DNA from: an uncultured Acidobacteriaceae bacterium | GTDB lineage: Bacteria > Acidobacteriota > Terriglobia > Terriglobales > Acidobacteriaceae | Assembly (NCBI GenBank): GCA_963725225.1 | Contig: CAVRXY010000016.1 | Span: 91,185-155,184 of the forward strand | Reading direction: 5' to 3' | DNA length: 64,000 nt | Part shown: piece by piece, positions 1 to 15,400 of the stretch | Layout: each line of letters starts with the position of its first letter | Position numbering within the stretch: position 1 is the first letter of the stretch | Notes under the pieces: generated by a model | What the model saw: the letters and a program-made list of their open reading frames with translations, nothing else | What the model was told of the DNA's origin: nothing | Database searches by the model: none | Made by a program: the position numbers and the translations under genes

Positions 1-759
1 GCCCTGCCCGAAGCGCTCATGGAGTCCGAGCTCTTCGGCCATGAGAAGGGTTCCTTTACCGGCGCGCATGCCAGTCGTCCCGGCCAGGTCGAGCTGGCCG
101 ATACCGGAACGCTCTTCCTCGACGAAATCGGCTCGCTCGGCCTCGCGCTCCAGAGCAAGCTGCTGCGCGTCCTGCAGGACCGTTCCGTGCATCGCATCGG
201 CGCCAAGAGCCCGCGCACCGTCGACTTCCGCCTCATCACCGCAACCAACGACAACCTCGAGCAGATGGTCAAAGCCGGCCAGTTTCGCGAGGACCTCTAC
301 TACCGAATCTGCGTCATTCCCATTTCTCTGCCGCCTCTGCGCGAGCGCGACGGGGATGTGCCGCTGCTGCTCGATCACTACATGCGCATGTACTGCATCG
401 CCGGCGATGTGCCGGTGAAGCGCTTTTCTCCCGACGCGATGCAGATGCTCGAGAGCAGCAGCTGGCCCGGCAATGTTCGCGAACTTGAGAACCTGACCCA
501 GCGACTAGCTCTCATGGTTGACGGCGAAGTGATTGATGTGGAGCACCTGCCCCAAAGGCTGGTCATCGAAAGCGCCGCCAGTCAGGATAAGATCCTCATC
601 CCTCCGGAGGGCGTTGATCTCGACGAAGAGATGAGGCGCATCGAGCTAGCTTATCTGCAGGCAGCCATTCGCCGCGCCGGCAGTAAGCGAGGAGCGGCCG
701 GCGTGCTTGGCATTCCCATCGAGAAAGTGAAGTATCTCTGCCGCAAGCATGGCATTTGA
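1..759 (+). CDS. sigma-54-dependent transcriptional activator (bEBP), C-terminal part; 5' end lies outside the window
   Basis: Frame 1 is open from nt 1. [15 protein letters not shown] is a GAFTGA-type sigma-54 contact loop. AAA+ core motifs are present ([25 protein letters not shown]). C-terminal Fis-type HTH ([21 protein letters not shown]). Confidence 0.9.
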
Positions 760-784
760 AGGCCCGCCTGGGCTGCCTCGCCGA

Positions 785-826
785 GGGTTAAATTTTAACC
801 CAGGAAGGGGGTTAATTTTTAAACCC
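785..826. promoter_or_regulatory. Two tandem inverted repeats GGGTT-N7-AACCC (785-801) and GGGTT-N8-AACCC (809-826); putative enhancer (UAS) for the adjacent bEBP
   Basis: The palindromes were read directly from the sequence. They are centred about 115-140 bp upstream of the sigma-54 promoter at 919-934, a typical UAS distance. Confidence 0.45.
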
Positions 827-918
827 TAAGGGTCTCGTCCCCGTCCGATTCAGGCCAGCAGTGGCCCGAAAAACCGGTTTTGAGCACAAATTTGCTCATT
901 TTCGCGGTTTCTCGAGTT

Positions 919-934
919 TGGCATTCAAATCGCA
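919..934 (+). promoter_or_regulatory. sigma-54 (-24/-12) promoter TGGCATTCAAATCGCA
   Basis: GG (920-921) and GC (932-933) have exactly the spacing of the TGGCAC-N5-TTGC consensus. The -24 element TGGCAT is 5/6 and the -12 element TCGCA is 4/5. The site is 70 nt upstream of the GTG at 1003 and directly downstream of a bEBP gene. Confidence 0.6.
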
Positions 935-1002
935 ATAGGGATACGCGTGAGCGGACTGGAACAATCCAGGAAGCTATCAAACGACCTTAAGGAGAACACT
1001 CA

Positions 1003-1302
1003 GTGGCAATCCAGAAGAAATCGCTGATCAGCAACCTGAAGTCCAGCAAAGTTAAGTCCACGAAGCCCGTCGACGGCGCCACGCGGCTCTCGAACTCAGC
1101 CCTTTCCAACGTAGCTCTGTCCAAGACCACAATCTTGTCTGTGAGGATGCCAGGTCTTTCCAAGACGCCAGTTCTGTCCAAGTCTCCAGTTCTTTCCAAG
1201 TCTCCGTTCTCTCCAAAGACTCCGGTTCTCTCCAAGACTCCAGTTCTCTCTAAGAAGTTCTCCCAAGACGCCGTCTCTCGAAAAAGATGGTGTAACGCCT
1301 GA
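1003..1302 (+). CDS. small (99 aa) basic Lys/Ser/Pro/Thr-rich protein with LSK(T/S)PV hexapeptide repeats; unknown family
   Basis: GTG start with AAGGAG (989-994) 8 nt upstream, a sigma-54 promoter upstream and a hairpin terminator downstream. GC3-rich codons in the N-terminal third support this frame. No signal peptide or TM segment. Confidence 0.5.
   Translation: MAIQKKSLISNLKSSKVKSTKPVDGATRLSNSALSNVALSKTTILSVRMPGLSKTPVLSKSPVLSKSPFSPKTPVLSKTPVLSKKFSQDAVSRKRWCNA
1156..1263 (+). repeat. six tandem 18-nt units (ctYtcYaagaCKccRgtt-like) inside the small ORF
   Basis: Unit boundaries are 1156, 1174, 1192, 1210, 1228 and 1246. The units encode LSKTPV/LSKSPV/LSKSPF/SPKTPV/LSKTPV/LSKKFS. Confidence 0.85.
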
Positions 1303-1345
1303 GCCGCTGGCAACGAGCGGACTCGTCCATGCCCATCAATCAGTA

Positions 1346-1379
1346 AAAGGAAGAGCTACGGCTCTTCCTTTCTGTTTTT
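1346..1379. terminator. bidirectional rho-independent terminator shared by the convergent genes
   Basis: An 11-bp perfect stem aaaggaagagc / gctcttccttt with loop tacg, followed by ctgttttt on the + strand and an A/T-rich flank on the other side. Confidence 0.75.
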
Positions 1380-1385
1380 GCCGAG

Positions 1386-3536
1386 CTACCAGAGCTTGCG
1401 GTCCACGAAATCGCGGATCTCGCGTGCGGCAATTCCTGCGAGACTGGTGCGACGCACCACGATTCTCGCTGTTCCAGTCATTCCGGCCCGCAGCGAGCCG
1501 TCATTTTCGAGCAGGACATCGGCGAGATAGTCGCCCGTGCTCGTCTCTCCCTGAATCTGCTTAATAGTTTCTACCGCTGCCGGCACATGGCCCGAGGCCA
1601 TCTCGATGCGCTCAACCGATGAGTGTCGCGGCGCGAAAGTTCCATCCACCAGCAGACTCACGCGCGCCCGCGGCTGCACATGCCCGACTGCAAATTCCGG
1701 AACATAGAGCAGCGCTCGCATGATTTGCGTGTCGACCACATCGGTTATGGTCACCCCTGCATCCAGATAGCTGTCCGTCAGGTCCTTCAGCCGCGTTGCC
1801 GTGACCACACCATCGATCGGCGCACGAGCCACCAGTTGTTGTGTCTCCTCGCCGGCGATTGCGGAGTTCTTTTCCGCCTTGGCGTGCTCCTGCTCGGCGG
1901 CGCCCACGTCGCCATGCGTGAGCAACTCCTGGATGCGCGCTCCTGCAGTAAGGGCCACTTCTTTGCCTGAGGCCGCGCGAGCCGAATCAAGAGTCGCATT
2001 CGTCATCGTCAGCAACGGATCGCCGGCCTGGACATGCTGGCCTTCCTCAGCCAACACCGCGGTAACGCGCCCCGGCACCATGGCACGCACCACCGCCTGG
2101 CGCGCGGGTTCCAGCAGGAACCGCACCGTGATCGTCTCGCGCCAGAGCGGAAGAAACACAAGCATCAGAAAAATAGCCACGCCACCCACGATCCGAGGCA
2201 GGGACAGCCAGGCACGGACACGGTCACGTTTGTCGAGATACACAGTCCTCACAAACCTCAAGAGTATTTTGATCCGAGAGCGGAAAATAAGTAGCGCCAA
2301 CGCCAGCACGGGAATGAACGCCCACTGCGGGGTAAATCGGGAAAGGACGTTGTTACTGAATCGCAGGACCGTGAACAAAAGCATGTAGCTGTAAAGCCCG
2401 GAGAGAATCGCATACGTTAAATAGCCCGATCGCCGTCGCCTCGGTACGAATTCCATCTCGACGGGAAGGCGGAAGATATGCCTCCGAACCAGCCCCGAGA
2501 GATATGCTGTCGATCTCTCCTTGATGTCGGAGAAGCCGATGATCTCGGAGAACGCGTAGTACCCATCCAGCTTGATCAGCGGGTTCATATTGACCACCAC
2601 AACCGCGACTCCGGTGATCAGCATGATTTTGTATGCCAGATCGTGCGCGCCGCTTCCTGGGGGCGTGCCCCACCAGAGGATGGTTGCCACCGCGCAAAAG
2701 ATCATCTCCGCTCCGATGCCGGCGAGGATGATGAGGAATCGCTGCCAGCGTCCGGCATAGACGAACGCCTCGCTCACATCCACAAAGAAGGCCGGAGTCA
2801 GGTAGATGAGGTGGAAGCCCATCGCGTGGACCTGTCCGCCATAGTGCTTGCAGGTCAGCCCGTGTGCCGACTCGTGAAAGAACGCGAGGATTAGAAACAG
2901 CAACCAGAACTCAGCCAGATCGCCCGCAGTCTTTTGCGTAAAGTTATAGAACAACAGCGAGTCCTGCGCTATCTGTCCCCAGTTTGCGGCGAACACATAG
3001 ATCATGAACCCGAACAGAACGAGGCACACAACGCCAAACCATCGCGAATAAAGCCACTTCAGCCGGGGATAAATCCGATTGAAATATCGATCCGGATCCC
3101 AAGCTGAAAACTGCATGTGCGCCACATCGCCCCACTTCGATTTCTTGTGTGCGTGCTGATGACGGCCTTCCTCGAGTTTCTGTTGCAGTGCGATATTTTT
3201 TTCGAGGGGCGTTCTGTACCAGAAGTCGACCGCGTCCAGACCGCTGGTAAACTCGCGCAGGTCGTCGGGATCGAAGCGCGTCCCGTAGAGTTCCGCATGC
3301 AGCGCTGCCACGTCCTCCCACGATCGGGTGCCGTCAAACAGCTCGATGATTTTCCACTGTTCCGGCGGGAAGCGGAAAAAGCTGTCGCGGCCGCGAATCA
3401 TCGCCACGATCACGGGCTTCCCATCATCGCTGTTCTCCTGCCAGATAAGCCCGGGGTCGACCTTCGGATAACTGACTCGCGCTTTCCGAGCCGGCAGATC
3501 CGGCAGTGCCGCATTGAGCGCCTCGGCAAGGTTCAT
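1386..3536 (-). CDS. M50 (site-2-protease-like) membrane metalloprotease with an N-terminal PqqD/RRE-like segment and a C-terminal HlyD-type adaptor domain (716 aa)
   Basis: HESAHG zinc motif and NMNPLIKLDGYY (the S2P NxxPxxxLDG-type motif) lie in a polytopic region. The C-terminal ~270 aa resemble membrane-fusion proteins (VQAGDPLLTM ... VVTATRL ... ARIVV). The start overlaps the upstream stop by 4 bp. Confidence 0.8.
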   Translation of the reverse strand: MNLAEALNAALPDLPARKARVSYPKVDPGLIWQENSDDGKPVIVAMIRGRDSFFRFPPEQWKIIELFDGTRSWEDVAALHAELYGTRFDPDDLREFTSGLDAVDFWYRTPLEKNIALQQKLEEGRHQHAHKKSKWGDVAHMQFSAWDPDRYFNRIYPRLKWLYSRWFGVVCLVLFGFMIYVFAANWGQIAQDSLLFYNFTQKTAGDLAEFWLLFLILAFFHESAHGLTCKHYGGQVHAMGFHLIYLTPAFFVDVSEAFVYAGRWQRFLIILAGIGAEMIFCAVATILWWGTPPGSGAHDLAYKIMLITGVAVVVVNMNPLIKLDGYYAFSEIIGFSDIKERSTAYLSGLVRRHIFRLPVEMEFVPRRRRSGYLTYAILSGLYSYMLLFTVLRFSNNVLSRFTPQWAFIPVLALALLIFRSRIKILLRFVRTVYLDKRDRVRAWLSLPRIVGGVAIFLMLVFLPLWRETITVRFLLEPARQAVVRAMVPGRVTAVLAEEGQHVQAGDPLLTMTNATLDSARAASGKEVALTAGARIQELLTHGDVGAAEQEHAKAEKNSAIAGEETQQLVARAPIDGVVTATRLKDLTDSYLDAGVTITDVVDTQIMRALLYVPEFAVGHVQPRARVSLLVDGTFAPRHSSVERIEMASGHVPAAVETIKQIQGETSTGDYLADVLLENDGSLRAGMTGTARIVVRRTSLAGIAAREIRDFVDRKLW
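3219..3416 (-). other. PqqD-like / RiPP-recognition-element-like segment (residues ~41-106 of the M50 fusion)
   Basis: FRFPPEQWKIIELFDGTRSWEDVAALHAELYGTRFDPDDLREFTSGLDAVDFW aligns by eye to the PqqD pattern ([10 protein letters not shown]..I...L...F....VD.DV.EFL..L....W). Confidence 0.5.
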
Positions 3537-4450
3537 GGTCTGCGGGGTACTCGGATGGTCGCCACCATTCCCGGCAGCAGGCCCGGCATCTTACGGCTCA
3601 GCACCGCGGTGACTTCAATCGTTCCGCTGCCGGGATCGACAACCGGGCTCAGGTGCGTTACCGCCGCCAGGGCCGTCACTTGAAAATCGGGCGTGGCGGA
3701 TACCGTTACCAGAGATCCTCTCCGCAGCGCAGCACCCTCCCGCGCGGGCAGGGTGAAGCGGACTTCAAGCGGCGAATTGCCGGTCACCTGGAAGAGCCGA
3801 TCACCGATGTGAAGATATTGCCCCTTTCGCACATATCTCTGCGACACCTCGCCATCGAAGGGCGCGACGATCCGGGTCTTTTCCATCTCCATATCGAGAG
3901 ATCGGAGGGCAGCCTGCGCGCTCTCCATTTCTCCGCGCTGCCGCTCCACTTCATATTGCGTGGCGGTCAGATCGTATCTCGCATGATCGAGCGCTTCCTG
4001 CGTATTGATCCCATCTTTTCGCAGTTCCTCTGCGCGGCGCAGGTCCGCCTTGCGCACCTCCACTTCAGCTTCCCAGTTCTTCAGGTCGGCCTCGAGGCTC
4101 TTGGCCTTGTACTCCGCCGCGCTGCGGTCGTCGGCAAGCTCGCGATCGTCAAGTCGCGCGAGCAGCTGACCGCTTCGAACACCCATGTCCACGTCGGCAT
4201 CGAGCGAAGCGATCACGCCCGACCGCTGCGCAACCACATCCAGTTGCTGCTCCATCGTCACCGGCCCGGTCACCACCAGGTCATCTGGCGCGGCTACTGG
4301 CGCAGGATGATTGACTGTCTCAGCGACCGGCCGCGCAGCCGCGGAGGCTGCAACCACCGTGGCGCTTTCGCCCGGCTGCCTGCTGGAAGCACAACCGGCG
4401 ACAGCAGCCGCAAAGTAGCAAACCGCAATTACTGCAAACAGCCGGCTCAT
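3533..4450 (-). CDS. HlyD-family periplasmic adaptor lipoprotein (305 aa)
   Basis: Signal peptide with lipobox AVAGC|ASS, a coiled-coil hairpin (EADLKNWEAEVEVRKADLRRAEEL...) and beta-barrel motifs (RIVAPFDGEV). Confidence 0.8.
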   Translation of the reverse strand: MSRLFAVIAVCYFAAAVAGCASSRQPGESATVVAASAAARPVAETVNHPAPVAAPDDLVVTGPVTMEQQLDVVAQRSGVIASLDADVDMGVRSGQLLARLDDRELADDRSAAEYKAKSLEADLKNWEAEVEVRKADLRRAEELRKDGINTQEALDHARYDLTATQYEVERQRGEMESAQAALRSLDMEMEKTRIVAPFDGEVSQRYVRKGQYLHIGDRLFQVTGNSPLEVRFTLPAREGAALRRGSLVTVSATPDFQVTALAAVTHLSPVVDPGSGTIEVTAVLSRKMPGLLPGMVATIRVPRRP

Positions 4451-4457
4451 CGCTTTT

Positions 4458-6866
4458 TCACCATCCCAACCACGCCCACAATTTCGCCCACGCCCACACC
4501 GCTATGTCGCGGAAGATCACATACCCCAGCGGCCGCAACCCGGTTCGCACCTTGCCGAACCCCTGCATGCCCGGCCGCAGACTTCCGTCGGAATTCGGAA
4601 CCGTGACCCTCGCGTAAAACACGCGGTCATCGCCAACCACCCCAGCCGCAGGGCTCACTACACTGACTGTGCCGCGGTACGTGCGCGTCGGAAAGGACTC
4701 GAGCTTGATGCTCGCCGGGTCGCCGGCGCGCAGCAGGGTCACGTCCCGCTCCGGCACTGCGACGTCGACGACCGAGCGGTCAGTCCTCACAATATCGATC
4801 ATCGGATCTCCGGCAGTGACTTTGCGTCCCATCAGGTTCTCAACGTGCGGCGTAGTGACGACGCCGCTGATGGCGGCCCGAATCGTCGTCCGTCCCACTT
4901 GCTCCGCCAGGCGTCTCATCTCGCCGCGAAGATATTCGCCTTCCAGCTGCCGTTGGCCAGCCAGCGGCGCGTCGTTGTTCACCAGCGCCTGTGCTGTCTG
5001 CGCCATCGCGGTGTTGTACCGGGCCGCCACGCTGGCCGCTGCTGCACGCTGTTCCCAATCGGCCATTTGCAGCAGCGGCGTGCCCGGGGCAACCTTCTCA
5101 CCTTCCTGCACCAGCACCTTTTGAACGACCCCGTCTTCTTCAGCGTGCACCGATTGCGTCTGCCCCGCGGCCACTTGCGCGGTTCCAGAAACGCGCATGG
5201 GAACAGGAACCGTAACCAGCGCCAGCAGCATCGCCGTCGCCCCGGTAATAATCAACGCCCTGCGCCGCCGGTCGATGGCCAGGAAGCGACGCTTCTTTTC
5301 CATCAGCGGCTCCAGAATCCCGATGAACGGCACCTCTTTGTACAGCGAGGCGTTGCGCAGCGCCAGCGTCGCTTGGCTCGACAGCAGCTTGATGACCTCG
5401 ATATGCAGTTCCGTCAGGAAGTCCGGGTCGGCGCTGTCAAACGACAGCATGCCCAGCCGGCCCTGATCGTCCGCCAGCGGAATTGCATAGAATCCGCGAT
5501 AGCCGGTCTCTTCGAAGTATCTTCGGAACTTTTCGCTGGCTTCCGGCCGCGGATCGCTGATCTCGTCCTCGTGCATCGAGACGTGGATTTCTGTGTCGAG
5601 ACCGGCAGCCCAGCGCAGCACCTCCCGCAGTCGGTGCGCCGAGGGTTCCGACGTATCCAGTTTGGTCACGCCGGAGATCGCTTTGATCGTCAGCCGATTC
5701 CGCTCCTCCAGTGCAATCGCCGCCCGATCGTAGGGAATCACAAGCTGCGGTTGATTGACGACGGCCTGCAGGACCCGCTCCTGATTTAACGTCGAGCTGA
5801 TTTCCTGACCTACGCTGACCAGCGTTTGCAGGATTTCGATCTTTCGTTCGGCCTGCAGCAGCGAGGCATTGTGCAGTGCCTGCGCCGCGGAGGACGCCAC
5901 CTGAGTCAGAACGAACAAGTCATCCTCGGTGAATGGCGGATCCTCCTCGAAACGGATCGCCTCGATCACCCCAACCAAGTTTTCCCCGTCGAGCACCGGT
6001 GTGGCCATCAGGGAGCCCACGGCCACTTCCTGTGATTGTGCATTTCGTATCGCCAGCGCCGCATCGCCCATCTGTAGCAGCACTGCCTCACCGCTCTCGC
6101 CGGCGTCGCCCGCGATGCCGCCACCGGCCGACTGTCGATCCCCCCTCTGCGCAACCGGATCGGCCCCGGCCTGCTGCATCAGCAGCAAGTCGTGCTGATC
6201 TACCATCCACAGGTTCACCGCCTGCGCTCGAATCAGATCGAAGACCTTCTCGCAGATAACGGGCAGCAGGGTTTCCATCTCTAGACTCGCGCTGAAGACC
6301 TTTTCGATGTCATAGAGCTGCGTTAGCCGCATGACGGAAGCCAGCTGCGCATCGCGCTCCGCTGCATAGACTGCGCCTCCAGCCACCGCGAGTGCGGCAA
6401 TCCGCGCAAGCTCTGCGATGCCCTCCAGAGCGGAGGGTCCCGGCAATTCCCCAAAGCTCACAATCTCGATACAGCCCAGGAGCCGCTCGTCCAGCAGCAG
6501 CGGAATACACGTAAGCCCGGTCACGCTCTGTCGTACGTCGAGATGCGCATACTCTTCCCGCGAAAGATCGTCCGCAAGAAATTGCAGAATCGCCCGCTCC
6601 CGAGCTGCGGCGCCCAGAGCCCCCGAGTCCACAGGAATCGGAACACCGTCGACCGCTATATCGCCGGCGGTCGCCTTCGCGGTCCAAAGCGAGGCTTCAG
6701 CATCTTCAACGACGAAGACGGCAACGGCTACGTCCCCCAGCGCATCGACGATGCTCTGCGCGACAATGCGAGCGCGAGGGCCAATCTCCAGTTCCGCAAG
6801 AAGCGCCGCCGCAATCTCCGCTACAGGAACCGCTACCGCGGGATCTGACAACCGCGAGACCTCCAT
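4458..6866 (-). CDS. three GAF-like domains, one TM segment and a HlyD-type adaptor domain (802 aa)
   Basis: Three ~150-aa N-terminal repeats have GAF-like strands (LLGCIEIVSF, LVGVIEAIRF, RLGMLSFDS). TM segment ALIITGATAMLLALVTVPV. The C-terminus is adaptor-like (GVVQKVLVQEGEKVAPGTPLLQM ... RAAISGVVTTP). Confidence 0.7.
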   Translation of the reverse strand: MEVSRLSDPAVAVPVAEIAAALLAELEIGPRARIVAQSIVDALGDVAVAVFVVEDAEASLWTAKATAGDIAVDGVPIPVDSGALGAAARERAILQFLADDLSREEYAHLDVRQSVTGLTCIPLLLDERLLGCIEIVSFGELPGPSALEGIAELARIAALAVAGGAVYAAERDAQLASVMRLTQLYDIEKVFSASLEMETLLPVICEKVFDLIRAQAVNLWMVDQHDLLLMQQAGADPVAQRGDRQSAGGGIAGDAGESGEAVLLQMGDAALAIRNAQSQEVAVGSLMATPVLDGENLVGVIEAIRFEEDPPFTEDDLFVLTQVASSAAQALHNASLLQAERKIEILQTLVSVGQEISSTLNQERVLQAVVNQPQLVIPYDRAAIALEERNRLTIKAISGVTKLDTSEPSAHRLREVLRWAAGLDTEIHVSMHEDEISDPRPEASEKFRRYFEETGYRGFYAIPLADDQGRLGMLSFDSADPDFLTELHIEVIKLLSSQATLALRNASLYKEVPFIGILEPLMEKKRRFLAIDRRRRALIITGATAMLLALVTVPVPMRVSGTAQVAAGQTQSVHAEEDGVVQKVLVQEGEKVAPGTPLLQMADWEQRAAAASVAARYNTAMAQTAQALVNNDAPLAGQRQLEGEYLRGEMRRLAEQVGRTTIRAAISGVVTTPHVENLMGRKVTAGDPMIDIVRTDRSVVDVAVPERDVTLLRAGDPASIKLESFPTRTYRGTVSVVSPAAGVVGDDRVFYARVTVPNSDGSLRPGMQGFGKVRTGLRPLGYVIFRDIAVWAWAKLWAWLGW

Positions 6867-7059: not shown

Positions 7060-7407
7060 TTGAGGCCGCTCGAAGTCAGCTATTTGAAGTATGGTCAGGT
7101 CGGATTAGTCACAGTACAGGGAGGGCTTGTACTCGGACCACCTGTCGAATCTCTCCGAAAGACCTTGGACAATCTCACCGCTCACGGAGAGACACAACTC
7201 GTCCTTAATCTCGCCGGCATCGATCGCCTCGATTCCAGCGGCATAGGCCTCCTCGTCAAAGCTCTTCAGTCCTGCAAAGGTGCCGGAGGAAACGTTAAGC
7301 TGACGAACCTGCCAAAGGTCGTTACACAAACCCTGAGCATGTGCTGCCTACTGCCTTTGTTCGATGTCTACGATCAGGACCAGGACGCAATCGCTTCTTT
7401 TGGATAA
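7060..7407 (+). CDS. STAS-domain protein (anti-sigma-factor antagonist family)
   Basis: TTG start preceded by AAGGAG. LVLNLAGIDRLDSSGIGLLV is the typical SpoIIAA/STAS motif with the phosphorylatable Ser context. Confidence 0.8.
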   Translation: MRPLEVSYLKYGQVGLVTVQGGLVLGPPVESLRKTLDNLTAHGETQLVLNLAGIDRLDSSGIGLLVKALQSCKGAGGNVKLTNLPKVVTQTLSMCCLLPLFDVYDQDQDAIASFG

Positions 7408-7761: not shown

Positions 7762-8409
7762 TCACAGTTGTTGACGCAAGAGTAATTGAATCAAGCTGCA
7801 GTGCCAGCGTAATGCATCACTCCCTCGGAACGTGGCCTGATCGCAATCAGAAAGCAGGCCATGGTCTGCGCGAAACGGCAGACATGTCCGATCTCCTTCG
7901 GCCTGGCGACGCTGTTCTTCCTTAATGAGCTCGATCACAATTTGGATCAAATCGGCATCGCCCTCGAGGTGCGCTGCCTCAAAGAAGCTTTCTTCGTCGG
8001 CCTCCCGCTGGGTCGAACGGAGGTGGGCAAACCAGATGCGGCGCGCAAAGCGGCGGACCATGGCTGCCAGATCGTTATCGGCACGCACTCCAAGCGCCCC
8101 GTGCAGAAGGTAATCCCGTTGGCATCATCCGCATGGCGCAAGGTTTCGCAACGATTCGATGTACGGATCTCTCTCATGTCCAGCCTCGCGCAGTTTGACA
8201 CGCTCGCTCACGACCAGGCTTTCAACGACCGTCCACTCCAGGCCCGCAGCTCGCACCACGTCCTGGCGCCTCTTAATCGCCTCTACCGGCCACGTTTCGC
8301 CAACGGAAACCTCGTGCAATGCGGTAACGACTGCTTCGGCGCCAGCCTGCCTCGCATCCGAAAGCGTTACTCTGTCGGTCGGACCAAACCATCTCCAGGT
8401 CTGTTGCAT
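7762..8409 (-). pseudogene. uxuA: mannonate dehydratase with an internal ~200-codon deletion
   Basis: 8125-8409 encodes MQQTWRWFGPTDRVTLSDARQAGAEAVVTALH..., matching the E. coli UxuA N-terminus (about residues 1-95). 7762-8088 encodes RADNDLAAMVRRFARRIWFAHLRSTQRE...AAHLEGD...EEQRRQAEG, matching UxuA residues ~298-375. The two pieces are only 36 bp apart. Confidence 0.8.
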
Positions 8410-8412
8410 AAT

Positions 8413-9378
8413 TCACTCCGGAAAATCGATCTGCGAGGTTAATTTCCTTCCACCAGTAAGGGCACAGCTCCCAGCAGAGCGGCACGTTCGCCAAGCTCTG
8501 CGGCACGCACAACCGGCGTACCCCATGCGGCCCACGCATGCTTGTTCAACATGGTCCTGGACAAAAGGCACGATCACATCCGCACGACGCATGACTCCTC
8601 CTCCCATGATCACAACCTCAGGATCGTAGGCATGGATCAATGCAACGGCATTGGCGGCCCATACCTCCAGGCAACGTTGCCGTATCTCAAGTGCGACCTG
8701 ATCACCATGATCGGCGGCATCGAAGAGCACACGGAAATTAAGCTCCGGCTCTCGGGCAAGAGGGCTGGCTGAAAACGCTGGATGCTGCTGAATGATGGCC
8801 GGAAGAGCCCAACCGGAGGCTTCGGCTTCAGCACACCCTACGTTTCCGCATGTGCAGCGCCTCCCGCGGAAATCGACAGGCAAATGGCCGCCAAGGCAGC
8901 CCGCTTGCGCATGAGCGCCGCGCAGCAGACGGCCCTGGATCATCGCGGCTCCTCCAATGCCTGTGCCCAGTGTCATCATTACTACATCGCTTACGTTTTG
9001 AGCGCTTCCGGCAAACTGCTCTCCAAGAAGCGCGAGGCGCGCGTCATTTTCCATACGTAGCGGTAAGCCTAAAGTCTCTCTGCTCCATGCGGCCAGATCC
9101 AGATCTTTCGCATCTTCATACTTCTTAAGAGTGGAGAGGATGTGGCTGGTTCGAACATCGATGATGCCCGGAAAACCGACGGCAAGACCGGAGCATGCAG
9201 CCAGAGGCTCGCCTGCTTCATCCAGAAGCTGCCGCAAGATCTGCACGATAAGCGGCAGGATCGAAGCAATACCCTTCGCGCTCTCCGTTTCGAGTGAAGT
9301 GCTGGCGAGGATGCGTTGATCACGCACAACCGCGCAGCCGATATGTGTTCCGCCCATGTCAAGCGATAAGGCAAGCAT
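8413..9378 (-). CDS. ROK-family sugar kinase (possible 3'-terminal frameshift)
   Basis: LSLDMGGTHIG, the zinc motif CTCGNVGCAEAEASG and VIMGGGV. A typical ROK C-terminus (WGTPVVRAAELGERAALLGAVPLLVEGN*) is found only in another frame, ending at 8439. Confidence 0.8.
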   Translation of the reverse strand: MLALSLDMGGTHIGCAVVRDQRILASTSLETESAKGIASILPLIVQILRQLLDEAGEPLAACSGLAVGFPGIIDVRTSHILSTLKKYEDAKDLDLAAWSRETLGLPLRMENDARLALLGEQFAGSAQNVSDVVMMTLGTGIGGAAMIQGRLLRGAHAQAGCLGGHLPVDFRGRRCTCGNVGCAEAEASGWALPAIIQQHPAFSASPLAREPELNFRVLFDAADHGDQVALEIRQRCLEVWAANAVALIHAYDPEVVIMGGGVMRRADVIVPFVQDHVEQACVGRMGYAGCACRRAWRTCRSAGSCALTGGRKLTSQIDFPE

Positions 9379-12457: not shown

Positions 12458-15400
12458 TCCGCCTTTGTCTCATGCACGGGCTGCGTCTCAAAGCGGAGTG
12501 TAACAACCCCATACGCCGGAATTGTGAGATGGATACCGTCAGCAGCTACGGGCAGTTCCTTCGATTTTTCCTCCAGAACATTGCACAACCACACGCGATT
12601 GATTCTGAGATAGCTGCTGTTAACCGCAACATTCTCTGCTCGTCCCGCAGATTCTTCCAGCCGCAGAATGCTTCCGTCTCCGTCCTCTGCGGGTTTCCAG
12701 GTTGTCGCCACTACTGACTCAGCGGAAAGATGAAGAAAACTCGCGGACGCACCGTGCAACGCATGCGGAGTTGGACTCGGCCCTACTTGATCGAACTCGA
12801 GAGGCGTCATCGCCTCCCATCCAAGCCGCGTCAATTGCTGTGCGTCAAATCCTTTTGTGCTCACAATTCTGTAGCGGAAGACATAGTCTCCGCCTTGCGA
12901 GGACGCATAGTTGGTGTCCCAGTAGTTCGACATGATCCAGGAAAAAATGGCGCCGCTCCGCGGATGGAAATCAGACGGCCACTCCCCGCGAACGATGTCT
13001 CCGAAGGTGACGATGGGCGCATCCAGCGGAATCACCGCCGCAGTGTCGCCATCGCTGGTCATCGCCGCCCAGTGATTTACGGCATACCACTCACGGCTGC
13101 CGCCTATGAGCTCGTCGCGCGCCGGATTGATCCAGCCGTTCTGTGATTCGTAGCCGAATTCCGGATGATCTCCCGCAAATGGAAACGCGAAATATGCCGC
13201 CTCCTTACGCAGTGTTGCCGTTTTCCGAAGGCCGTAAGTCAGCTCAATACCCTTTTCAGCCGCAGGCAAAGTAATTTCGAGTTGAATATCGGGCGTATTC
13301 GGTGCACTCGAAGTCAGGACGGCCGTCAGCCCATGTGCGTCTCTGGTGATGCTGACCAGCTTTCCGTGCGAAGCCTCTGTCGCATCCAGCTTCGGCAGAT
13401 GCTGCGCCGCGCCATAGCGATACAGGCTATTCCAGGGCATGTCATCAGCGCCTTGAACGTAAATGTAGGAACCAAAAGCAAACGAGCTGTTGCCGTCTAC
13501 GATCTCTCTTTGAAGCTGCTTATCGTAGATGCTGCGAAGGGCCCCGTGTTCAGTGTCCAGGGTGATCCGGTAGTAGGCATTCTCGAGCACGTTGCCTGTC
13601 GACACCGGAAGCGAATCGCGCGGGCCCGCGCTCGAAGTAGTCACCGAAACAATCATGAATGTGCGGTATCCTATTGCCGGGAGATTCTCAGCCCAAAATC
13701 GCACGCGGTTCGTCGGGGCGCCAAAGCCGGGGAGTGGTGTACCAGCCTCGCCATGCAGGATTACCTGCCGCACTGGTTGTCTGGTCGCGGGCTCCACAAT
13801 CATCTGCCCATCCGGTAAATCTGTATCGACCCATCCGCTGCGGTTCCAGCTCAGCGAATTGAAGACCAGAATGGAGTCGTGGTCCACATTGATCACAGAT
13901 TCGAGCTGCGCCCAGCTCTGCTCCACAGTCTTGGCGATGTCGTTGCTTGCGATCACACTTTCCAGGTCCTTCTGCTCCAGCTGGCGCACGGTTTCATCAC
14001 CCTCCGGTTGCGTCGTGGCGCCTGCGGCAGTCCAGGTGTGCTCGTTAAACAGGAGCATGTTTTCCCATGCTTCACGCATGCGCGCCGCATCCGGCCGTAG
14101 CTCCGGATCAAGCAGAGCGGGGAGCACGCTCATCTTTTCGGCAGTCAGGATGCGTTGCTGGCTTCTGCGAAATATCGCTGCATGCCTTGCGTCGGACGTC
14201 AGTCCATCCTCCCAGTAAGGCCCGAAATCTCCCCGGTATACCTTTAGCTGATCCCCGAACTGTTTTTCCAGTGACGCCATCGCATCCTCAAATGTAGTGA
14301 AGACCATCTTTGGATACGCGTACTCACCTGCCCATTCTTGCGGCAGGCTCACCTGCGCGCGGCTGAGCGGAGTATTTTCAAGCTGGCTCCCATAGATGAT
14401 TACCGAGTTCGCCGTATAGTCCGGCCGCGTGTAGGCCTGCAGAAAGACCGGAGTCGCGTCTTCGACGGCCGGCAAGGTTGGCGGCGTCCCATACATCGAG
14501 GACAACTGCAGATAGGCCCGCGAATACCACATCATGACCCGTCCACCATCGGGTCCTTCCCAGTAAAACGGGGATTTCTCGTTCCAGCGGCCAAGCAGCA
14601 CAGCCGGAGCGCGCCACGAATTGCTGCCCGCTGCCAGATATTTCACGCCTGCATCATGCAACACCGATGCGTAGGACCAGCTGTAGGACGGCACGTCCGT
14701 GATGTTGGCCGCGCCAATCGGCAGGCTGTACTTTCCGGCGAGATCATGGCTCCAGTAAAGCGAATGAATCAAGTCTTCCAGCGAAGCAGTACCGGTAAGC
14801 TCATTGGCAAACTGTGCAGGAATGACGATCTGCCCGGCGCGAACTGCTGCGAGGAATTGCTCCTTGCGGTCCTTTGAGCGGCTTTCAAGGTATTGCTGAG
14901 CGACCCAACTGCCATCCAGATTCCAGCGGAAATCCGGTTTCTTCTTCAGGAGATCGAGCACTCCATCGACACTCTGCGATTGCAACTCCGCAACCTTGGG
15001 AGCGTAATCGGTAAAGCCTATGTCAAGGTGCTCATGCGGAACTATGTCCAGGGTCCACTTCTTCGCAGCTTCGATCTTCTGCTGGAATGAATGGCCAGCG
15101 ACAATGAGCGTGGCCTGTGCTTCTCCCTGCCATTCGGGTACGGCGAAACGCAAATGCGCCTCGCCGAACTCCCCTGTAAGAGCGAGAGGCTGAGTAAGCC
15201 GTGTGCCATTGACGGTAAGAACCGCGTCTCCACGCGGTACTGCTCCCGCATGGAAGTCCGGGTAGACGTCGACCATCTCCTGCAACCCTGCCGACGATGT
15301 CTTGTAAAAGATGGTTGGAACAATCGAGGTGTGAATCGAGCCCGATACATAGTGCGCACGTTCATCACAACTAAAGGCGAGCGCGTCGTAGGCGATGCCG

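Follow-up and report, generated by a model that had tools for sequence, protein, structure and literature searches.

What is made from a short repetitive gene that lies between the gene of a transcriptional activator and a convergent gene for a membrane protease, and what becomes of the product? The question is raised by a 64,000-nucleotide stretch of DNA from an uncultured Acidobacteriaceae bacterium (contig CAVRXY010000016.1, positions 91,185 to 155,184; hereafter the window), in which a small open reading frame (ORF) stands just downstream of the gene for a bacterial enhancer-binding protein (bEBP; a sigma-54 activator) and converges on an operon whose nearest member encodes a fusion of a RiPP recognition element (RRE)-like domain, an M50 protease and a membrane-fusion protein (MFP) domain (RiPP, a peptide made by the ribosome and then modified post-translationally). 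A preliminary description of the window had offered the small ORF as a candidate multi-core precursor or substrate of this convergent machinery, a proposal with which the genetic linkage and the frame conservation found by comparing related loci both agree; all of the sequence features listed in that description were recovered (Table 1). With moderate confidence, we propose that the product is a sigma-54-induced leader-plus-repeat peptide which is recognised, cleaved and exported by an RRE-M50-MFP complex, and we infer leader binding by the RRE, cleavage, export and an extracellular role from these comparisons.

A leader-repeat peptide family of Terriglobia

When the window ORF and 10 other members of its family were compared with Pfam and NCBIfam, no family was matched and only sub-threshold compositional similarities were returned (Hc2, MXKDX pentapeptide, cornifin), which bears out the earlier remark that the product fits no named family. 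A first protein search with the whole ORF gave only two close relatives, and a HMMER profile built from three sequences gave mostly low-complexity noise together with four plausible members. The profile search that had been suggested as a check was ineffective when applied to the whole peptide, whereas retrieval guided by neighbouring genes and by the leader uncovered a large family. For the neighbour-guided retrieval, an alignment of M50-MFP homologues yielded 80 of 152 confirmed stretches from species-representative genomes; the M50-MFP-containing loci retrieved (numbered here with the prefix L) all belonged to Terriglobia, and a small convergent ORF lay between the M50-MFP and bEBP genes in essentially every locus with enough sequence. 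In total, 182 distinct family sequences were collected, all from Terriglobia or from metagenome contigs. A profile of the leader matched at least 422 protein clusters in a collection of 5.8 billion proteins, all of them short and either without a name or called 'hypothetical'; named sources among these clusters were few, and came from Terriglobales and Sulfotelmatobacter. Family proteins of isolates are annotated as 'hypothetical protein', and some of the genes are not called at all.

The members share a leader with the consensus M-[AS]-I-[QE]-K-K-S-L-I, usually continued by x-N-[LM]-x-[AS]-[TA]-K-K-A-I-[IV]-A. Across 75 distinct sequences, residues M1, K5, K6 and L8 never vary, conservation is limited to the first ~25 residues of the small protein, and the remainder is hypervariable. 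Downstream of the leader come a short linker rich in S, T, P and A and then a tandem array, the unit of which is specific to the lineage. Clear arrays were present in 98 of the 182 distinct sequences and were built from 74 different units, including LSKTPV, VGLSKN, SKGLTT, GKRVEL, LSKRAD, TKRLDA and LAKGT as well as ATKNL, VAATR, QTAKHPGL, GGVSASK, PLSK and TAK; the unit period ranged from 3 to 13 residues (mode 6), and the copy number from 3 to 20 (median 9.6, maximum 20.5). All 74 units contain K or R, with a small residue preferred at position -1 and L or A at -2, while Cys, Trp and Tyr are nearly absent from the family. The median net charge is +11, with a charge density of ~0.18 per residue; most tails consist of K or R and then one to three hydrophobic residues, and the small protein has no signal peptide and no hydrophobic segment.

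The DNA of the arrays carries a clear imprint of translation. All 57 of the 57 DNA repeat periods were multiples of 3, and the differences between adjacent units comprised 562 synonymous and 79 non-synonymous changes. Across 50 arrays, with each variable column counted once, codon positions 3, 1 and 2 accounted for 200, 48 and 14 columns, respectively, and position 3 dominated in 47 of the 50. In L080, 13 units that are all distinct as DNA encode ATKNL without exception; likewise, the 12 units of L046 that encode LAKGT and the 12 of L019 that encode SKAGLT all differ in their DNA. The start codon, moreover, is conserved across nearly all loci. Together these comparisons strongly support a real, translated gene that is under purifying selection at the level of the peptide. 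The expectation that homologues would keep their reading frame across repeat-number variation holds for units of 3-13 residues and for 3-20 copies, with variation that is overwhelmingly synonymous, and the identical peptide units encoded by diversified DNA provide a clean natural example of protein-level selection on a repeat.

The small ORF is one of a conserved set of six genes, which encode a STAS protein, a GAF-MFP protein, an MFP, the RRE-M50-MFP fusion, the small ORF product and the bEBP. This cassette was found in all sufficiently long loci that were fetched through the M50-MFP protein, at identities of 42-100% and among unrelated flanking genes. A reciprocal search made use of a degenerate DNA pattern of the first nine leader codons only, and drew 120 stretches from metagenome contigs; family-like peptides were encoded in 109 of them, and among the 64 contigs with at least 800 nt on each side, 61 carried the bEBP gene upstream on the same strand and the convergent M50-MFP gene downstream. 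The preliminary description had singled out co-occurrence of the small ORF with M50-HlyD fusion genes as a check on its proposal, and such co-occurrence was found in both directions of search; genetic linkage of the small ORF to the bEBP and M50-MFP genes is near-obligate.

A few loci depart from the layout of a single array. In L031, from a Granulicella metagenome-assembled genome (MAG), four tandem small genes (8482-9334, minus strand) replace the single repeat gene; these paralogues have a related leader (MAIEKKTLPTKSDKK...) followed by non-repeat, acidic to neutral cores that end in AVTPSFTV, and a strong sigma-54-type -24/-12 element stands before the first of the four only. Two or three tandem paralogous leader-repeat genes lie between the bEBP and M50-MFP genes in L053 (8229-8758), L085 (12256-12805), L164 and L188. 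In L081 (8145-8658), a start of MAIEKKSL is followed by loss of the frame, and a K-containing repeat (..TAKLASAKVATAKLA..) goes on in a different frame, suggesting either that the copy is frameshifted or that the MAG is in error here.

Predicted sigma-54 control of the small ORF

The part of the bEBP that is encoded in the window matched Sigma54_activat (PF00158, 8e-46) and AAA_lid_14 (6e-25) in Pfam and contains a GSFTGA loop. Its orthologue in L001 is full length at 466 aa, has a weakly receiver-like N-terminus, and gave a weak match to HTH_8 (E 0.16) in its C-terminal helix-turn-helix (HTH). By its AAA+ domain with a GAFTGA-type loop and its C-terminal HTH, the activator belongs to the NtrC family. 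In nearly all related loci the small ORF lies directly 3' of the bEBP gene. A receiver domain is clear in the bEBP of L084 (12709-14130) and degenerate in the window lineage (L001 6357-7757; Response_reg E 0.05), and no kinase gene is present among the conserved cassette genes.

Two GGGTT palindromes had been reported beyond the activator gene; both are confirmed, and the tandem pair is conserved in related upstream regions. The first contains a perfect core, GGTTAAATTTTAACC, at 786-800, and the centres of the two are 24 bp apart, or about two helical turns. Matches to GGTTAANNNTTAACC with at most two mismatches were limited to these two palindromes in the 64-kb window, against 0.51 expected by chance. 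Of 78 upstream regions from related loci, 46 had two tandem GGTTAA-N3-TTAACC sites ~23 bp apart; the pair immediately follows the stop codon of the bEBP gene and lies some 100-130 bp upstream of the -24 element. In a Sulfotelmatobacter-like clade (L040-L057, L078), GGTTAA-N3-TTAACC is replaced by GATTAA-N4/5-TTAATC, in two or often three copies; such clade-specific dyads suggest that the activator and its site have co-evolved. Pairing of the right arm of the first palindrome with the left arm of the second also gives a terminator-like hairpin (795-815), followed by TTTTT, that could in addition end bEBP transcription. Palindromes that serve as a bEBP terminator are the less likely explanation because the half-site sequence itself, beyond mere pairing, is kept in distant loci.

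The predicted promoter, TGGCATTCAAATCGCA, matches 9 of the 11 consensus positions (TGGCAC-N5-TTGCW-like), and the GG-N10-GC spacing claimed for it is correct, as expected of a sigma-54 promoter by sequence. In the window alone the pattern has two matches where 0.87 are expected, which is not above chance; the significance of the promoter comes from the conservation of its position across loci and not from the window match itself. At a score of at least 8/11, 59 of 70 loci had a -24/-12 match located 45-125 nt upstream of the start codon, compared with 2.1 expected, and at a stricter score of at least 9 such a match was found in 42 of 70, compared with 0.39 expected. The second -24/-12-like match in the window, TGGCAGTTGGGTCGCT (14899-14914, minus strand), lies inside a 1175-codon ORF and was set aside as probably due to chance.

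Nearer to the small ORF, GGAG or AGGAG occurs at an equal distance before the start codon in almost every related locus, and the order and spacing of palindrome pair, -24/-12 element, Shine-Dalgarno sequence and ORF are kept even where the proteins are only 42-50% identical. The small ORF had been proposed as a dedicated target of the neighbouring activator, with which this conserved order and spacing, along with its co-occurrence with the bEBP gene, are in agreement. We infer sigma-54 dependence of the small ORF from these sequence elements; taken as predicted features, the dyads, promoter and adjacent activator are arranged in the way that is classic for NtrC-family activators and their targets. 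The arrangement is like that of PspF and pspA in having the activator gene directly upstream of the presumed target, two dyads, a GG-N10-GC promoter and a GAFTGA-type loop. It differs in that the target is a repeat-peptide gene, the cassette has no cognate histidine kinase, the receiver is degenerate in the window lineage, and a STAS protein co-segregates.

The 5' untranslated region (UTR) did not fold better than shuffled sequence (z -0.96), and for this reason no riboregulator is claimed. A small hairpin within it (CTGGA-ACAA-TCCAG, 956-969 in the window) recurs in L010, L016 and L021, and a shared CGAGCA motif takes its place in the UTR of a distant clade. An Rfam scan of 600-1600 (E<=1) gave only a spurious microRNA match and no known RNA.

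A candidate protease-adaptor export route and its rivals

The 716-aa protein encoded opposite the small ORF was matched by the NCBIfam model daptide_HExxH (NF041824) with an E-value of 1e-44 over residues 33-419, although at 153 bits against a cut-off of 300; it fails the daptide equivalog test, with a score below the cut-off and no daptide-modifying enzymes among the cassette genes. Further matches were to YydH/LiaK (1e-7, weak), RND_mfp (2e-20) and Pfam HlyD_3. Peptidase_M50 (PF02163) scored 25.9 on the window protein against a cut-off of 27.2, and is precomputed on most of the homologues. The residues H220-E221-xx-H224 and N317-P318...L322-D323-G324 (NPLIKLDG) are invariant in 16 homologues, and about seven hydrophobic segments lie ahead of the MFP part; motifs and polytopic membrane domain together place the protein in peptidase family M50 (site-2 protease type).

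The N-terminal domain was examined as an AlphaFold2 (AF2) model of the first 149 residues, in which the beta3-alpha3 order is as in an RRE, at a predicted local distance difference test score (pLDDT) of 69. Strands at 43-46 and 53-56, with further short ones, and helices at 58-66, 73-84 and 90-102 were modelled with a pLDDT of 78-87. The top three matches in a Foldseek search of the PDB were all complexes of the lasso RRE TbiB1 with its leader, at an E-value of 0.2 and a TM-score of 0.52; Pfam gave no PqqD match on the window protein, and one is precomputed on the homologue P0091. On the model, an RRE is likely. A profile of the N-terminal domain compared with PDB sequences gave only spurious matches to aminopeptidase N. 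The full-length AF2 model of the M50-MFP protein was confident only in the RRE-like and MFP parts, and was not used for fold searches because the M50 membrane domain had a pLDDT below 50.

The two other proteins of the operon are also adaptors. The 305-aa MFP has an N-terminal hydrophobic segment and matched HlyD_3 (2e-16, Pfam) and RND_mfp (7e-43, NCBIfam); the GAF-MFP protein matched GAF_2 (2e-26) and HlyD_D23 (8e-24) in Pfam, and its transmembrane segment spans residues 537-555. HlyD_3 or HlyD_D23 is above the Pfam cut-off in all three MFP-domain proteins, and RND_mfp is above its cut-off in the 305-aa lipoprotein only. The third GAF domain of the GAF-MFP protein (residues 418-498) also matched the LuxR-type autoinducer-binding domain exactly at the Pfam cut-off (23.0 bits), which may be mere cross-matching of the GAF fold.

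These parts can be assembled into the following route. The bEBP would bind the two GGTTAA-N3-TTAACC palindromes just past its own stop codon and activate the sigma-54 promoter at 919-934, and the resulting monocistronic mRNA would be translated into a signal-peptide-less protein with a leader of ~25-40 residues (MxIQKKSLI...) and tandem units that contain K or R. In the cytoplasm, the leader would be recognised by the RRE-like N-terminal domain of the M50 protease, which would then remove it and pass the cationic repeat peptide to a periplasm-spanning assembly; the latter would be made up of the fused MFP domain of the protease, the lipoprotein MFP and the GAF-MFP. Once exported, either as the whole array or as unit peptides cut after K or R, the product would act outside the cell; since its core is specific to the strain and species, its role would most likely resemble that of a bacteriocin or a pheromone. 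By analogy, the conserved leader with a hypervariable core, the within-species polymorphism and the four-gene variant of L031 resemble precursors of bacteriocins or pheromones.

Such a route would work like known leader-peptidase and export systems for ribosomal peptides, and M50 enzymes are established in the maturation of small peptides of this kind. In the RRE-dependent daptide leader peptidase, leader removal is carried out by an intramembrane site-2 protease with an RRE fused to its N-terminus (10.1101/2023.03.08.531785). The window alignment to daptide MpaP (NF041824) covers the N-terminal recognition domain as well as the HExxH membrane domain, and small leader-bearing precursor genes, sometimes multi-copy, adjoin the protease in both systems; in contrast to daptide clusters, the cassette has no DUF-RRE protein, oxidative decarboxylase, aminotransferase or methyltransferase, the precursors, being repeat arrays, do not follow the C-terminal Thr rule, the protease has a C-terminal MFP domain, and the hosts are diderm Acidobacteria. 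EpeP, an M50 protease of Bacillus subtilis, cleaves a small ribosomal peptide that it is believed to export as well (PMC10885120). The EpeX/EpeP (YydF/YydH) pair shares with the cassette an M50 protease and a small peptide, and the window protein weakly matches YydH/LiaK; the cassette differs in lacking a radical-SAM epimerase and an ABC transporter, in a core that is a repeat array, in a protease fused to an MFP and accompanied by two further MFPs, and in its predicted sigma-54-type control.

Multi-copy precursors are represented by yeast alpha-factor, fungal Kex2-processed RiPPs, cyanobactin PatE and the insect apidaecin precursors. Like these, the family would place many identical short peptides behind one leader, and many of its units have KR or a single K or R as a possible cleavage site; unlike them, its units can be as short as 3 residues in 20 copies with no spacer or recognition sequences in between, unit release is only hypothesised, and the cassette shows no homology to their processing enzymes. 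The M50 enzyme Eep/RseP matures Gram-positive sex pheromones and SHP into short extracellular signalling peptides. There is a likeness in the M50 protease, and the polymorphic cores resemble pherotypes; Eep, however, acts on the hydrophobic signal peptides of lipoproteins or on small peptides that are themselves hydrophobic, and is a housekeeping enzyme without an RRE, an MFP or a dedicated gene cluster.

Several observations weigh against the export route. The conserved cassette includes no pump: no ABC, RND or MFS transporter and no TolC-like gene was found in or next to it in any annotated locus, although one may lie elsewhere, and the energy source of export is consequently unexplained. 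With three MFP domains and no transporter at the locus, the cassette does not qualify as a tripartite efflux or type I secretion system. Like a RiPP cluster, the cassette has a precursor with a conserved leader and a variable core beside processing machinery, but it falls short of that definition because no core-modifying enzyme is found among its conserved genes, and the genes that flank it vary from locus to locus. The usual targets of M50/S2P enzymes are hydrophobic or helical segments, and the small-ORF product, unlike such substrates, is hydrophilic. The MFP operon is convergent and not co-transcribed with the small ORF, and pattern scans gave it neither a dyad nor a -24/-12 element of its own. 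Units of only 3-4 residues make it doubtful that one unit is one active peptide. The RRE assignment is weak by fold and absent by Pfam, and the window copy of the small ORF has a frameshifted tail and may be in decay or wrongly assembled.

A serious variant of the model dispenses with cutting: the cationic repeat polypeptide would be exported whole by the cassette and act as a polymer of the surface or matrix, which might for example bind anionic exopolysaccharide or outer-membrane lipid, and the leader would be an unconventional secretion signal. We hold this to be possible, if on the unlikely side. The shortest units (3-5 residues, as in TAK, PLSK and LAKGT) fall below the length of typical signals or toxins, there can be as many as 20 copies, the median charge is strongly positive, the K or R and few hydrophobic residues at the tails suggest a defined polymer end, and the cassette contains no dedicated protease that would cleave between units. 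A period that varies from 3 to 13 residues, on the other hand, leaves no common structural repeat, L031 has four separate short genes instead of an array, and the identity of peptide units despite synonymous divergence fits the release of identical peptides equally well.

A bolder extension of the export route, in which single units are released, is in our view doubtful. The cassette would then be a peptide factory and exporter without a conventional pump, in which an RRE-guided intramembrane protease, fused to a periplasmic adaptor and assisted by two others, would strip the common leader and set free from the tandem array many identical copies of a strain-specific, K/R-terminated oligopeptide of 3-13 residues. 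By analogy, the arrangement would correspond in bacteria to the alpha-factor precursor of yeast; the unmodified peptides would be kin- or strain-recognition signals or toxins in soil Acidobacteria, and the DNA would be diversified synonymously to resist recombination while the peptide units are kept identical.

The preliminary description had itself named an alternative, a disordered, S/T-P-K-rich, nucleic-acid-binding-like protein. In this case the product would be induced by the bEBP and stay in the cytoplasm as a basic binder like histone H1 or as a stress hydrophilin, and its linkage to the M50-MFP genes would reflect co-regulation or shared physiology instead of a relation between enzyme and substrate. 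The composition, rich in K, A, S, T and P, would suit such a role, as would the lack of a signal peptide or hydrophobic segment, and some members have sub-threshold matches to Hc2 (PF07382 at 4.6e-6 and 27 bits against a cut-off of 40; NCBIfam 0.002-0.06). The window ORF, however, has no Hc2 match, and no tested member reached the family threshold; the net charge density is modest, and units such as LSKRAD, GKRVEL and GGGLNASK are nearly neutral; the cores of the L031 paralogues are acidic to neutral and non-repeat. Conservation of the leader alone is the opposite of what a composition-driven binder needs, and the linkage to a homologue of an RRE-bearing leader peptidase is near-obligate from both search directions. 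We therefore find this alternative, which fits less well, improbable.

Quite improbable, too, is a purely regulatory role, in which the peptide would serve the M50 protease as substrate or decoy and, by being cleaved or by titrating the protease, would feed back on a STAS/GAF/bEBP circuit, making the system a signalling device without any exported product. M50 proteases such as RseP and SpoIVFB are classic enzymes of regulated intramembrane proteolysis, STAS and GAF sensory domains do belong to the conserved cassette, and the missing pump would be accounted for; three periplasmic MFP domains are nevertheless hard to explain without transport, and hypervariable cores within a species are unexpected for an internal regulator. 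It is highly improbable that the ORF is non-functional, whether as a non-coding tandem DNA or RNA repeat or, in the window, as a decaying pseudogene. For the family, the codon-position and period-of-3 statistics, with the conserved start codon and Shine-Dalgarno sequence, exclude this. The window copy has several indels and a frameshifted tail compared with relatives at 94% identity, antisense ORFs are also open across the repeat, and there is no Rfam, Pfam or NCBIfam match; the leader, Shine-Dalgarno sequence and promoter of this copy are nevertheless intact, as are five units in frame, and one of its two frameshifts is compensated.

In the literature library that was searched, papers on M50/HlyD/RRE proteins, on tandem-repeat RiPPs and on sigma-54-controlled small proteins in Acidobacteria yielded no description of the cassette, and it and its peptide family appear to be undescribed. 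Compared with known systems, the sequences point to three novelties: a tandem-array precursor, an RRE-M50-MFP fusion with two adaptors and no pump, and sigma-54/bEBP control with a STAS protein. Terriglobia are among the most abundant soil bacteria, and their secreted peptides and cell-cell interactions are almost unknown; the cassette is widespread, with an M50-MFP relative at 152 loci in species-representative genomes. If the export route holds, it would provide a new precursor architecture, with one leader and up to 20 identical mini-cores, a new coupling of a leader peptidase to envelope export in diderm bacteria, and a handle for genome mining (MxIQKKSLI beside an RRE-M50-MFP gene). The hypothesis is directly testable because cultured carriers exist (Granulicella sp. 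S190 and Tunturiibacter spp., among them T. empetritectus and T. gelidiferens).

The window allele and its surroundings

Table 1. Positions of the predicted features of the cassette in the window
Feature	Position	Strand	Remarks
bEBP gene (sigma-54 activator), 3' part	1..759	+	cut by window edge; last 252 codons
C-terminal Fis-type HTH of bEBP	within 1..759	+	
Putative upstream activator sequence 1, palindrome GGGTTAAATTTTAACCC	785..801	.	core GGTTAA-N3-TTAACC; exact match
Putative upstream activator sequence 2, imperfect palindrome GGGTTAATTTTTAAACCC	809..826	.	one core mismatch
Sigma-54-type -24/-12 promoter TGGCATTCAAATCGCA	919..934	+	GG-N10-GC spacing; predicted transcription start near 945
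Shine-Dalgarno sequence AAGGAG	989..994	+	8 nt before GTG at 1003
Small ORF	1003..1302	+	GTG start; 99 codons
Leader-like N-terminal 40 codons MAIQKKSLISNLKSSKVKSTKPVDGATRLSNSALSNVALS	1003..1122	+	
Variable repeat (core-like) region	1123..1251	+	hexapeptide units LSKTPV/LSKSPV
Aberrant C-terminal tail ..KKFSQDAVSRKRWCNA, then stop	1252..1302	+	last ~17 codons; made by indels
Intrinsic terminator hairpin	1346..1371	.	11-bp stem; between convergent genes; possibly bidirectional
RRE-like domain + M50 protease + HlyD (MFP) domain fusion	1386..3536	-	716 aa; NCBIfam, Pfam
Membrane-fusion protein (HlyD/RND adaptor)	3533..4450	-	305 aa; lipoprotein-type signal ..AVAGC
GAF-MFP	4458..6866	-	802 aa; three cytoplasmic GAF domains, one transmembrane segment, MFP domain
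STAS-domain protein (anti-sigma-antagonist type)	7060..7407	+	115 aa; Pfam STAS 2e-13; phosphorylatable DSSG motif

The AAGGAG sequence, the GTG-started ORF and the terminator were confirmed as first described. The window and its three nearest relatives have leaders of identical amino-acid sequence, with only three DNA differences, all of them synonymous, and the array consists of 5.9 copies of an 18-nt unit at 1150-1255 (Tandem Repeats Finder). Of the product as it had been described, the hexapeptide units and the ...RKRWCNA end are present, but the tail and the SPF/SPK irregularity depart from what is typical of the family. In comparison with L014 and L004, a -1/+1 indel pair at about 1201-1221 turns VLS into FSP, giving 'SPF SPK', with the first frameshift (about 1206-1216) compensated 10 nt later. 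In a DNA alignment with L014, L004 and L020, a net loss of 7 nt near the 3' end replaces LSKKMV and its stop codon by ..FSQDAVSRKRWCNA and a stop; the ancestral LSKKMV end is still contained in the window DNA, out of frame. The KKFSQDAVSRKRWCNA tail and 'SPF SPK' are atypical, therefore, because of indels relative to close relatives that end in ...LSKKMV.

Across the repeat, the antisense strand also holds open ORFs of 54-108 codons (987-1313 on the minus strand, and also 1052-1216 and 1096-1266); they are not conserved, and were taken for by-products of a stop-free repeat. The terminator hairpin is conserved in L001-L003 and present in other loci, and it is plausible that it is shared by the small ORF and the convergent operon.

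Over the 5.5-kb MFP operon the window is 99.84% identical to L001, whereas 1140-1273 of the window cannot be aligned to L001 8138-8203. The array of L001 is shorter and heterogeneous (LSKTTI LSKKLA LTKQIA FSKAAT LSKKTT LSKKIV). The LSK[TS]PV array type of the window is shared with L004, L014, L006, L009 and L020, from genomes that are only 80-94% identical, and the short array type is found in L002, at 94% identity. The 3' end of the bEBP gene, next to the ORF, has an identity of 98.55% as against 99.84% in the MFP operon, a divergence that is about nine-fold higher. Replacement of the allele, along with raised divergence in its flank, would suggest allele exchange or balancing selection.

The STAS gene is always found with the cassette, and lies by clade either beside the GAF-MFP gene, in divergent orientation, or downstream of the bEBP gene. 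A gene for a PP2C (SpoIIE)-glyoxalase protein precedes the bEBP gene in near relatives of the window only, and weaker PP2C-like matches were obtained close to the cassette in L031, L165 and L169. Beyond the STAS gene, only fragments are left of the mannonate dehydratase gene uxuA (7762-8409, minus strand; ORFs of 108 and 94 codons), and ~500 bp that are present in L002 are missing from both the window and L001; the uxuA of the window is likely a pseudogene.

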